Source: a virus
Lineage: Duplodnaviria > Caudoviricetes
Length of the DNA stretch: 64,000 nt
Virus record (IMG/VR): IMGVR_UViG_3300047160_009226
Coordinates: 32,001 to 96,000 of that record
Strand: one strand, 5' to 3'
In this document: positions 36,927-41,984 of the stretch, in pieces
How positions within the stretch are numbered: the stretch's first letter is position 1
Layout of the letters: the number at the start of each line of letters is the position of its first letter
Position numbers and translations under genes: made by a program
Notes under the pieces: generated by a model
Database searches by the model: none
Seen by the model: only the letters and a program-made list of their open reading frames with translations
What the model was told of the DNA's origin: nothing

Positions 36927-37931
36927 TCAGCCTTCCGAGGATGATCCCAGGATGCTTTCCATTCCCTCTTGAGACAAGTCCGGGAATTCCGGAGAGGGAT
37001 TGTGCTCAAGAGCTGTCCGGTTACCATTTCCGGTCACCTCAGTAGCTCCAGAGCCAAGAAGGCCCGCAAAATCAATCTCCTCAGGCATCGTCGTTGCCGT
37101 CGGTGCTCCCTGCTTGCCCTTACCTCCCTGCTGTTGAGCACCCGTTATCATCTCAACGATTTCAGCAATAGTGAAATCTTTGGCGATGAGTTTCGGGAGA
37201 TTGACATACATCTTAGCGGCTTCCTTGATGATCCTTTGCATGACCATCGGATCCTGACGCCACAGAGAAGGGCCAGCCGGAGAGAACTTGGTCCGATCGT
37301 ACAGCCCCTCCTTCTGAGTCCAAACCATGTAATCGTTTTTGATCACTGGATTGGTTCGGCTGTGCTCCTTCCATGCCCGAGTCTTGGCATCATTGATTGA
37401 CCATGGCTTAAGCTCGTATTTGAAGTTGAGCTTATGCCCGCCTCCCACCTCGATCTGTCGATCGGGTGGCAGGATCACCGGTTCGTTTTCGTTGTCAAGA
37501 TCGTACTCCAAAAGTACGAACCCGTAAACGATTTGTGCCGGCTTCTCGATCAGCCCATCTGGAATGCCGTCCTTCCAATAGATGTATCCGACTCCATCGA
37601 TCCAGAACGTCTTGGCTGCTTCAGTTCTGGCGTAAATGATCGTCTTCTTCCCGTTCTCGTCGGTCCAGACCTCCGCCGATGGTGGATTCTTTTTCAGGCT
37701 GTTCGTGAGATTCTCGCGAAGCGCTCTGATGTCCTCGATCTCTTCAATTGCTCTTGCATCCCTAGCTGTGGCCCTCCGTTGCAAATCCTGTGTCGGCACC
37801 AATTGATTCTCATACGCCGTGGCTGGGATATATGCGATTCTCTGTGGCCGTTCCTTAATGCCTGTCACCTTAAAGAATTCGCCGTCTCCCTTGCCCACGC
37901 GCCGATCGTCAAACGAATAGTGTCGTCCCAT
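36927..37931 (-). CDS. probable single-stranded DNA-binding protein (gp32-like)
   Basis: Aromatic-rich core, RIAYIP strand, acidic unstructured tail, recombination-gene context; no diagnostic motif. Confidence 0.4.
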   Translation of the reverse strand: MGRHYSFDDRRVGKGDGEFFKVTGIKERPQRIAYIPATAYENQLVPTQDLQRRATARDARAIEEIEDIRALRENLTNSLKKNPPSAEVWTDENGKKTIIYARTEAAKTFWIDGVGYIYWKDGIPDGLIEKPAQIVYGFVLLEYDLDNENEPVILPPDRQIEVGGGHKLNFKYELKPWSINDAKTRAWKEHSRTNPVIKNDYMVWTQKEGLYDRTKFSPAGPSLWRQDPMVMQRIIKEAAKMYVNLPKLIAKDFTIAEIVEMITGAQQQGGKGKQGAPTATTMPEEIDFAGLLGSGATEVTGNGNRTALEHNPSPEFPDLSQEGMESILGSSSEG

Positions 37932-37944
37932 TGCTATTGCTCCT

Positions 37945-38384
37945 GATCTAGAAATGAGAGGAAAAACTCGTCATCACGTCTCTAAACTTGCACGTTGCAC
38001 GTCACGTCTGAGTATCCCGAATTCCACACCGCTCGGAATCACACAGTATGTTCAAAAGGTCAAGGTGGTGACAAATTTCATACTGGGCTCAACTTAATCA
38101 CACGCCATCCCCGGACCTTCAAGCGTGTCGCATTACCAGTTACCTGGTCCCCAGTTTTCCTGTTAATTCAGGCACACCACACGGTCCGGCCTATTACGGG
38201 CTTGTACCTTTGCCCTATTCCCCGATCATGAGTTGAGATCATGATCACTGGTTACCCAGTTCTAAACATCAAGGTGGAAGAATACCTGACAGACAGAGAT
38301 GGAAGCGAGGCCAGTTCCCGCGAGGCATCACTCTACTAAAAGCACCTCACCCCATCTCTGCTGTCAGATATTACGCTTGCTAAA
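37945..38384 (-). ncRNA. candidate large structured non-coding RNA / leader
   Basis: No minus-strand ORF; at least 8 stems, two GUAA tetraloops and a 7-bp loop-involving long-range pairing. Confidence 0.55.
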
Positions 38385-39104
38385 TCAATAAGGCACTTCC
38401 TCATCAATGGGAGGAGGAGGTGCGTCAAAATCTTCTTCGAGAGCATCTGGATCATCACTCTCGTCTACTTCTCGTGGAACAACTCCCACATCCACATGTC
38501 CTCGTATATTTCCCTGGTTGCCATTATTCGCCGCTTGTGGTTGTGGGATTCCACCTTTACCATAAATCGCTGCTTCTGTCTCCATCGTTTTCTGTTGCAG
38601 TCGTACTCCAGAATCCAGTTTTCCAAGCTCATCACGTCTATGATCAATGATTCGAAGAAGTGCCTTGAATCTGATAATATCGCTCCTGGCTGTTTTGAGA
38701 TCTTCACTTAACTGAAACTGATTCGTCGGAGTCGATCTCAGAGCAAACTCTGCCTGATGATCACTGACATACCCTTGCTCCACCTGAGTCCAAATATATG
38801 AGTCTCTACTCTTGGCGTTTCTCATTCCAGTCGCATCGGGATCAAAATTTTGATACTCGACATGAGTCCTAAGCTGAACCTCTTCCTCAAGGTCATTGAG
38901 CCACACCTCAGACTCACAAAGAGCCATTTCTACTTTCTCAGACATTTCATTGACGATAGATTTAGCGTCGAGAATCTCAGTGATCTTCTCGGCAATGTAG
39001 CCAGGTCCCATCGTCGTTGGAGTTTTGGACAGATGGATCTTGAGTTTCTCATCAGAAGCCAACCTATCAACATACGCTTTATAATCGTCATCAGAGATCA
39101 TCAC
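38385..39104 (-). CDS. hypothetical coiled-coil protein (possibly recombination mediator-like)
   Basis: Helical 239-aa protein with an acidic tail, upstream of SSB/RuvC/RecA. Confidence 0.45.
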   Translation of the reverse strand: MMISDDDYKAYVDRLASDEKLKIHLSKTPTTMGPGYIAEKITEILDAKSIVNEMSEKVEMALCESEVWLNDLEEEVQLRTHVEYQNFDPDATGMRNAKSRDSYIWTQVEQGYVSDHQAEFALRSTPTNQFQLSEDLKTARSDIIRFKALLRIIDHRRDELGKLDSGVRLQQKTMETEAAIYGKGGIPQPQAANNGNQGNIRGHVDVGVVPREVDESDDPDALEEDFDAPPPPIDEEVPY

Positions 39105-39514: not shown

Positions 39515-39963
39515 ATTTCATTTCTCTTTCGTTCTTGTAAGGCTGCTAGGGTCTGATCACGTTCATGATTCTTCAAAACATTACGATCGCGAATAGTATA
39601 CATCAAGTCTTGCGCCCGAATCAAGACTAATTCCTCAAACGAAAAATCAGCTCCAATCTCCGAGCGGACTACTTCGCCTAATTGTAGGCCAGCCAAAGCC
39701 GCGAAGATCACCACATCGCCCGGCTCCAGTTCAATAGGCTCCCGACCTCCAGTTAAATCCACATAACGTCCTGGTCCTGCCGCGATCACCACGCCAGCCC
39801 CGGCAAAACCTTGAGATGACTTTGAATCCCTCTTGTCTGGAAGAAGAATTCCTCCCGCAGTCTGTCTTAAATTAATTTTATACACGATAACGGCGTCATT
39901 TCGTGGAACAAGAGGACACTTGTCAATGACTCTTTTTATTATCTGCGGATCGAAATCAAGCAT
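39511..39963 (-). CDS. groES: GroES-like co-chaperonin
   Basis: [31 protein letters not shown]. Confidence 0.88.
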
Positions 39964-40756
39964 GAATTTTCACTCCAGTTGTCAACGTCCGCTCTATACT
40001 CCATCCACGACGAAGTCGAACCCTAATCACCTCAACAGGAATCCCTTTAATCTTCGACCATTCTGATCGCGTTCTTTTTTCACCATCATATTCCAGTAAT
40101 ACAGCAGTTGAAAGACTAGCTTCACGTATCTTCTGTTTTGTCTCTTCACTGTGTTTCTTTCCAATGTTTTTTCCGAGCATAGAGCTACTTCTCTTCTGCT
40201 TAGTTTCTTTACTAGGCTTCATTCCAAGATGAGCTTCTCGTATCTTCTGTTTATGTTCTTCACTGAGCTTTTTCCCGAGCTTAGCCTCACGCATTTTCTG
40301 CTTGCTCTCTTCGCTATGCTTCCTCCCGCGATTAGCCTCCGCTATCTTCTCTAATGATTCTTCCGACAGCCGTCCAGATGACGGTCTCAAATTAAATCCA
40401 AATCTCCGGTTTGCCGCCTTAAGTCGATTAATCCATTCATTTTCCAACATGGTCAAGACGTCGGAATTATAAACATACTCCAAGATTCCCCAAACAAAAG
40501 CCTGAGATCCATACTCATTCCATGCCATTTGAAGTCGACGGCAGCGATTTCTGTTTCTATTTAAATTTTTTCTGTGGTCTCCCCATCGTTGACGTAAATT
40601 AACCGTACTCCCAACATACACTCTCTCATCAACCAAACAACGAATCTGATAGATCCCCATCTTGGACTTCTGATCATCCCCCAAAACCCACATCCAGCCT
40701 TCAGGAGTAATGGTCTGACCATCTACGAATACCGTCGGTGCAAAACTTTCTCTCAT
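39956..40756 (-). mobile_element. free-standing GIY-YIG homing endonuclease with NUMOD3 repeats
   Basis: [29 protein letters not shown] repeats. Confidence 0.88.
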
Positions 40757-41901: not shown

Positions 41902-41984
41902 TACGGACGGTGGGATTCGAACCCACATAGGATCACTCCCGAGGGATTTTAAGTCCCTTGCGTATACCATTCCGCCACGCCCGC
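41902..41984 (-). tRNA. tRNA-Leu (UAA), CCA not encoded
   Basis: GCGGGCG acceptor, TGGCGGAATGGTATACG D-arm, AGGGA-CTTAAAA-TCCCT anticodon arm, long variable arm, GTTCGAATCC T-loop. Confidence 0.95.

Follow-up and report, generated by a model that had tools for sequence, protein, structure and literature searches.

The 453-nt spacer (37932-38384, minus strand) between a 239-aa gene (38385-39104, minus) and a 334-aa gene (36927-37931, minus) is, on the evidence of sequence comparison, a mosaic of three minus-strand modules: a long hairpin (M1), an insert (M2, called element A) and a repeat block with the RBS (M3). It does not form one RNA domain, because the modules differ in their evolutionary distribution among soil-phage contigs. 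Element A (38012-38277, minus) comprises 266 nt of accessory, non-coding sequence that is missing from most sampled relatives and, judged from its conservation, is a genuine conserved orphan element. Our preferred though tentative reading is that it represents an accessory, selected and probably RNA-level cassette of unknown function, and not an obligatory leader of the 334-aa gene.

The window, that is the whole stretch of 64,000 nucleotides analysed here, corresponds to bases 32001-96000 of a 200,689-bp virus record from an uncultured soil jumbo phage. Neighbours of the spacer in the window encode a GroES-like protein, a GIY-YIG/NUMOD3 endonuclease, a RuvC-like protein and UDG, and the locus is therefore considered a replication/recombination module. 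The GIY-YIG and NUMOD3 homing-endonuclease gene (39956-40756, minus) lies in a stretch that is skipped in the alignment with the relative L002, and has the appearance of a free-standing endonuclease insertion peculiar to this phage. In crude ORF calls for the whole genome, about 189 of 198 ORFs fall on the minus strand. Of 101 2-kb bins, 99 show negative GC skew, and no turn that would mark an origin occurs anywhere in the genome. GATC is over-represented genome-wide (1421 observed against about 747 expected, 1.9-fold) and forms 13 clusters of three sites within 30 nt, one of them at 38224-38243; the relative L016 encodes a D12/Dam-class methyltransferase within the same module. Short contigs from four soil-metagenome runs match the region at 100% identity without variants, and in two of these runs contig pieces span both insert junctions, so that the insert is no assembly chimera or artefact.

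The sense strand of the spacer contains no ORF, stops being crowded in all three frames, which agrees with the first-pass annotation of an ORF-free region. A plus-strand ORF of 78 aa (37995-38231) was rejected as a gene, as its frame is broken by indels seen in the related locus L014. The motifs named in that annotation were all found at their minus-strand coordinates when the sequence was re-read. Its proposal of a single RNA of about 440 nt could not be maintained, since among relatives the distribution of the hairpin differs from that of the 266-nt middle, and both differ from that of the CACGT/ACGTG block. What survives of a novel conserved non-coding RNA is that part of the region is constrained, non-coding and hairpin-keeping, though not as one RNA. 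Judged by its hairpin density alone, the single sequence had wrongly suggested one big RNA, and relatives were needed to separate the solid hairpin from the insert.

Folding energies point the same way. On the minus strand the folding energy of the whole spacer is -159.7 kcal/mol, shuffled sequences giving -139.3 +/- 6.1 kcal/mol (z -3.35; 0 of 100 shuffles). For the plus strand z is -2.69. A z of only -1.0, with 30 of 200 shuffles equally good, was obtained for the middle 281 nt, in which the GNRA hairpins and the proposed pseudoknot lie; the excess stability of the spacer is therefore due to the long hairpin. Folding better than shuffles thus holds for the spacer as a whole and fails for element A taken alone.

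No family was identified in the spacer when the window was searched with the 4227 models of Rfam 15 at gathering thresholds; RNase P, tmRNA, SRP, introns, riboswitches, ribozymes and GOLLD/ROOL/HEARO were all without match there, and ARAGORN found no tmRNA in the window. With short inputs (window and L014) at E up to 10, Rfam returned only chance-level hits, namely miRNA, snoRNA, one lncRNA fragment and a weak CRISPR-DR9, at 13-26 bits against the 45-62 needed. The earlier statement that the region belongs to no known RNA family is thereby upheld for the window and for L014. Rfam and ARAGORN detect a single feature in the window, a tRNA-Leu (anticodon TAA) at 41902-41984 on the minus strand, about 3.5 kb from the spacer. 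A segment of L014, GAAAGUCCGGG, which we take to be like the P4 region of RNase P, was considered as an RNase P candidate and dropped, as no RNase P model matches.

M1 (38281-38372, minus) begins about 12 nt after the upstream stop codon and is solidly supported and ordinary in kind. RNAalifold analysis of five lineages gave 29 consensus pairs, four of them with changes on both sides. In this alignment 98.6% of cells are paired, a figure that falls to 41-48% if the 3' partner is slid, and the covariation score lies above that of 500 of 500 shuffles. One or more lineages have G.U at ten of the 29 pairs, where the other strand would show mismatches; the hairpin is therefore RNA-level and selected on the minus (gene) strand. 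Its apical part is variable in length and sequence among lineages. The 86-nt hairpin described in the first-pass annotation is thus real and covarying. M1 was rejected as an intrinsic terminator, as its stem is followed by UAUUCUU with no canonical or immediate U-tract, and a terminator consensus scan of 37700-38700 found none. The stem contains a near-continuous conserved double-stranded stretch of the length expected for RNase III-type processing (about 20 bp or more), and M1 is probably a 3'-end or RNase III-type processing hairpin.

M3 (37932-38011, minus) consists of an ACGTG-repeat block and the RBS, and is kept in all close relatives. The repeat block (37945-38011) contains two tandem units of about 22 nt, of the type ACGTG...AGTTT, and is conserved in the window, L002, L003, L016, L011 and L014; it is absent from the distant relative L006. 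The ACGTG triplet and the core words co-occur nowhere else in the 200,689-bp genome. The RBS, AGGAG (37940-37944), precedes the ATG of the 334-aa gene by 8 nt and does not vary in six relatives. The ACGTG block looks like a candidate gene-specific operator of the 334-aa gene, which would act at the DNA or RNA level.

The upstream 239-aa protein has 23 homologues and no Pfam or PHROG hit. Its AlphaFold model (pLDDT 79) is all helices, with a long coiled coil and a disordered acidic tail that ends in IDEEVPY, an SSB-like acidic tip (…DFDAPPPPIDEEVPY). A fold search gave no clear match, and the protein was rejected as an OB-fold SSB, being a predicted helical coiled coil despite its acidic tip. 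The downstream 334-aa protein is a conserved phage protein of the replication/recombination module, with 24 homologues of 49-88% identity from soil metagenomes. It has no Pfam, PHROG or PDB-sequence match; a profile search collected 68 relatives, and the 10 of these that were tested all lack a Pfam or PHROG family. Its nearest named Atlas cluster carries PF08804 (gp32) with a score of 0.86, and a structure model of low confidence (pLDDT only 56) aligns in VIA-align with RB69 gp32 (2atq_B; Z 4.0 over 149 residues), the only structural hit covering most of the model, with no clear fold match. The earlier designation as a probable SSB is thus left with weak gp32 leads, and the model hints only weakly at a gp32-type SSB.

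The distribution of element A was determined from the spacers of related loci. It is lacking in L002, L009 and L010, in L003-L005 and in L016. L002 is the closest relative sampled (88% amino acid identity in the 334-aa protein), and L003 has 86%. In L002 and L003-L005 the spacer of 175-187 nt aligns through M1 and again from the ACGTG block to the ATG, with 38012-38277 missing exactly. The spacer of L016 (188 nt) is of the same short type. Short spacers span 155-188 nt overall, including that of the P0007 contig (155 nt), in which absence of element A was judged by spacer length alone; the P0005 and P0028 contigs have a spacer of 338 nt. The RBS and ATG that follow the insertion site are used unchanged by the relatives without the insert.

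One other lineage, L014, carries element A, with 91% identity in the 5' part and 82% in the 3' part. The two copies share 212 of 245 aligned positions (86.5%), with identical runs of 51, 23 and 22 nt, and differ by indels of 1, 1, 2, 2, 1 and 66 nt; the frame-breaking indels, together with the stops in the sense frames, show that element A is non-coding. Fourfold sites of the three flanking genes are only 52-61% identical between the window and L014, the genes themselves being 78-80% identical, and the identity of element A exceeds that of the fourfold sites with a binomial p of about 1e-18. Read from sequence, this identity means either strong constraint or a common origin more recent than that of the flanks. 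Change is distributed very unevenly, which favours constraint, and recent exchange between lineages could account for part of the identity.

Element A is known from these two sequences only. It is single copy in the 200,689-bp genome, and an nhmmer profile of both sequences found no further copy in the genome and the loci. BLAST of the region against 50,697 phage records gave no match. Protein-guided and pattern scans of IMG/VR contigs yielded no further copy, and neither did GTDB genome contigs when scanned with a pattern of the conserved core; the metagenome scan yielded only five loci. A promoter search identified one sigma-70-like site inside element A, at chance level, and k-mer enrichment recovered only a GTATAGT motif, which is absent from the spacer. 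As a MITE or other transposable element it was rejected, being single copy with no target-site duplication or terminal inverted repeat at its junctions. A group I intron was likewise rejected, as the element lies between a stop codon and the RBS/ATG and Intron_gpI gave no hit at E up to 10.

Several hairpins are recognizable in the sequence of element A. These are located at 38247-38260 (GUAA loop), 38224-38246, 38198-38215, 38159-38172 and 38135-38148 (GUAA loop), along with an ACACGC/GCGUGU hairpin at 38100-38128. In L014 the ACCAG/CUGGU stem at 38135-38148 is changed to ACCGG/CCGGU, an A-U to G-C replacement that makes one compensatory pair, and its GUAA loop is replaced by a 66-nt branch of two hairpins between identical flanks. 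The ACUGG/CCAGU stem at 38247-38260 becomes GCUGG/CCAGU, with a G.U pair, and in the GGGC/GCCC hairpin 4 of 10 loop positions are changed and the stem is unchanged. Consensus-paired columns are 93.7% identical between the window and L014 and unpaired columns 79.0%, so that substitutions cluster outside consensus pairs. In an alignment of these two sequences, hand-anchored at the ACCAG/CUGGU hairpin, pairwise alifold gave -67.9 against -52.7 +/- 4.9 for column shuffles (z -3.1) and an SCI of 0.74 against 0.61 shuffled, with 0 of 200 shuffles as high.

Other observations qualify this structural signal. The antisense strand gives values near those of the sense strand in the same test (z -2.9, SCI 0.68). 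High conservation extends to the unpaired stretches as well, and protein binding to the DNA could explain this equally well. Two helices of the first-pass annotation, CAGTATG/CATACTG and ATTCC/GGAAT, are broken in L014, the only homologue of the middle insert, where a shifted CCGA/UCGG stem survives. The 7-nt complement behind the proposed pseudoknot is present, CCGGACC at 38183-38189 matching GGUCCGG at 38111-38117, and may pair either as a pseudoknot or, within a nested three-way junction, as the outer stem. The nested arrangement is the one predicted by minimum-energy folding for the window and for L014 alike, and ACACGC then pairs upstream and not downstream; in L014 GGUCCGG is changed to AGUCCGG, with loss of one end pair and no compensatory change. 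The differences between the two sequences favour neither fold over the other. About two 7-nt complements are expected by chance within 270 nt, by our own estimate. Covariation, which the first-pass annotation had named as the check on the fold, is firm for M1 and rests on one pair in two sequences for element A, for which the comparative evidence of structure is real but thin.

Relatives carry other cargo at the junction occupied by element A. L011 and L015 have an unrelated non-coding insert of about 130 nt (L011:11-139, L015:1328-1448) that follows GGTATT at this same junction; an 11-bp stem (ATTCTCGGAAG/CTTCCGAGAAT) closes the insert, which contains several inner hairpins (fold z -1.5) and has no match in Rfam. 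The JGI contig of L015 ends in AGATCGGA (1449-1456), the start of an Illumina adapter, and L011 continues as phage; the end of L015 looks like untrimmed adapter. In L014, a 249-aa ORF (L014:1776-2525) and a short hairpin stand in the place of M1 and are followed by the element A homologue. This ORF has no Pfam or PHROG family and no homologue in the present genome; its Atlas recognition is low, and it may not represent a real gene. The distant relatives L006 and L007 possess none of the three modules, and their spacer contains a 166-aa ORF (L006:2854-3354) with no Pfam or PHROG family.

Solitary 29-nt units of CRISPR-repeat type were identified in L014 (2953-2981 and 1-27), L011 (192-220) and L002 (510-540). 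They are composed of GTCGC, a stem-loop whose stem covaries, and GCGTGGATTGAAAC. The L011 unit and one of the two in L014 lie in this spacer, immediately ahead of the RBS of the 334-aa gene; the second unit of L014 and that of L002 are elsewhere on their contigs. An array of 82 repeats of the same type is present in L024, a MAG of Ardenticatenaceae (Chloroflexota). A model (R1) built from the relatives' units and this array scores 45-46 bits on L011 and L014. On the window and the whole genome it reaches at most 12 bits (E 0.5-0.8) and identifies no unit; an RNA anti-CRISPR or solitary CRISPR repeat was accordingly rejected as an identity for element A. Single units of the repeat type are also scattered on separate contigs of Giesbergeria, Simplicispira and a Burkholderiaceae MAG (L017-L020, L022 and L023), outside arrays and with no consistent ORF downstream. 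Four of these six (L017-L019 and L023) share the 3-nt prefix AAG of L011, in the context CCAAAG or CCGAAG in the bacteria and CCAAAG in L011. Solitary CRISPR-repeat units of phages are known RNA anti-CRISPRs (Camara-Wilpert et al. 2023, PMC10651486), and the units of L011, L014 and L002 are, by their sequence, candidate RNA anti-CRISPRs. RNA cargo therefore occurs in these phages, and at this spot.

Different explanations of element A may be weighed against these data. It could act in cis, as an optional leader domain of the mRNA for the 334-aa (possibly gp32-like) protein, tuning translation or stability together with the ACGTG block. Its strand, its position directly 5' of the gene-specific repeats and RBS, a possible 7-nt long-range pairing and the weak gp32 leads are what such a leader would offer. 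Most sampled relatives, including the closest, nevertheless keep the gene, the repeats and the RBS without it, the pseudoknot has a nested alternative and no covariation, and the identity of the protein as an SSB is without Pfam, PHROG or PDB-sequence match; an optional leader is thus considered unlikely. Since element A is dispensed with in relatives that retain the same genes, hairpin, operator and RBS, it is not a core leader of the 334-aa gene. The absence of the GNRA/pseudoknot part where the flanking genes, hairpin and repeats remain argues against an essential leader of gene 32 type. Rather improbable, too, is a functionless leftover of a cassette, for example one that once bore an ORF, recently recombined through the conserved flanks. 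Patchy distribution, flanks able to anchor recombination, unrelated inserts and ORFs at the same junction in relatives, and the unremarkable folding energy of the element itself would all suit such a remnant. It accounts poorly for the uneven identity (a 51-nt identical run beside a loop with 4 of 10 positions changed, and a 3' part at 82% beside a 5' part at 91%), for a 66-nt insertion placed exactly in the tip of a hairpin with a compensated stem, and for an alifold signal above shuffles, and position-specific constraint fits these data better than a recent neutral copy.

Least probable among the readings is that element A acts as DNA, through protein-binding palindromes, as a recombination hotspot or as a replication-related site. 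Perfect palindromes such as the 10-bp GATCATGATC with three GATC sites, the sequence conservation of unpaired stretches, the nearly equal antisense structure signal and a Dam-type methyltransferase encoded nearby in a relative speak for it. The uniformly negative GC skew, without a turn near 70 kb, argues against it and lends no support to the structured origin suggested earlier; GATC excess and clusters of this kind are general features of the genome; and the two GUAA hairpins, which share a loop on stems with swapped strands, fit RNA better, as do the G.U pairs. A more ambitious reading, which we regard as possible but doubtful, takes element A as the first member of a new class of structured phage RNAs. 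Such a class would have GNRA-capped hairpins around a multi-helix junction, spread between soil jumbo phages as a cassette and function in trans, for instance as a decoy against a host defence or a small ribozyme, from a landing site that holds CRISPR-repeat mimics in sister phages.

With the preferred reading of element A as a selected accessory cassette, the three modules may be arranged as follows. M1 would close the upstream transcription unit, with a role in processing or 3'-end formation, and M3 would serve the 334-aa gene as a gene-specific operator of tandem ACGTG repeats with its RBS. The junction between them would be a swap site, filled by element A here and by nothing, another insert or extra ORFs in relatives. 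Element A would be transcribed with the 334-aa gene or just ahead of it and would serve as an optional extra, for example a stable processed RNA, a modulator or a decoy. If it works as RNA, the very few accessory non-coding RNAs known from large phages would be joined by an unclassified family. Because sister phages carry CRISPR-repeat-like units in the same spacer, the hairpin-to-operator junction would then be marked as a swap site for RNA and ORF cargo.

Each part of the spacer can be compared with known systems. Large lytic phages possess intercistronic RNase III processing hairpins and terminator hairpins, for example the R sites of T7 and those of T4. M1 resembles these in its long, near-continuous stem of 29 pairs right after a stop codon and in its conservation with compensatory and G.U changes, and differs from canonical terminator hairpins in its UAUUCUU tail and the negative terminator scan. 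The translational operator of T4 gene 32 mRNA consists of a 5' pseudoknot and an unstructured repeat region before the RBS, and the pseudoknot nucleates autoregulatory binding. The present locus shares with it the order of a structured segment, a short repeat stretch, an RBS and a gene of the replication module, and a repeat block unique to its gene. Unlike in T4, however, the structured segment is dispensable in close relatives, the repeats are of ACGTG type and not A/U-rich, the pseudoknot is putative and the downstream protein is only weakly gp32-like. With GOLLD, ROOL, HEARO and the classic structured RNAs, element A and its spacer have in common a non-coding, multi-hairpin organization with GNRA loops over several hundred nucleotides, in a phage that also carries a tRNA gene nearby. 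They differ from these and from RNase P, tmRNA and group I/II introns in that none of the Rfam models, and no ARAGORN tmRNA prediction, matches. Finally, whereas the window's genome and element A have no CRISPR-repeat-type unit and in this are unlike RNA anti-CRISPRs, the relatives L011, L014 and L002 bear such units, as do the carriers of RNA anti-CRISPRs (PMC10651486).
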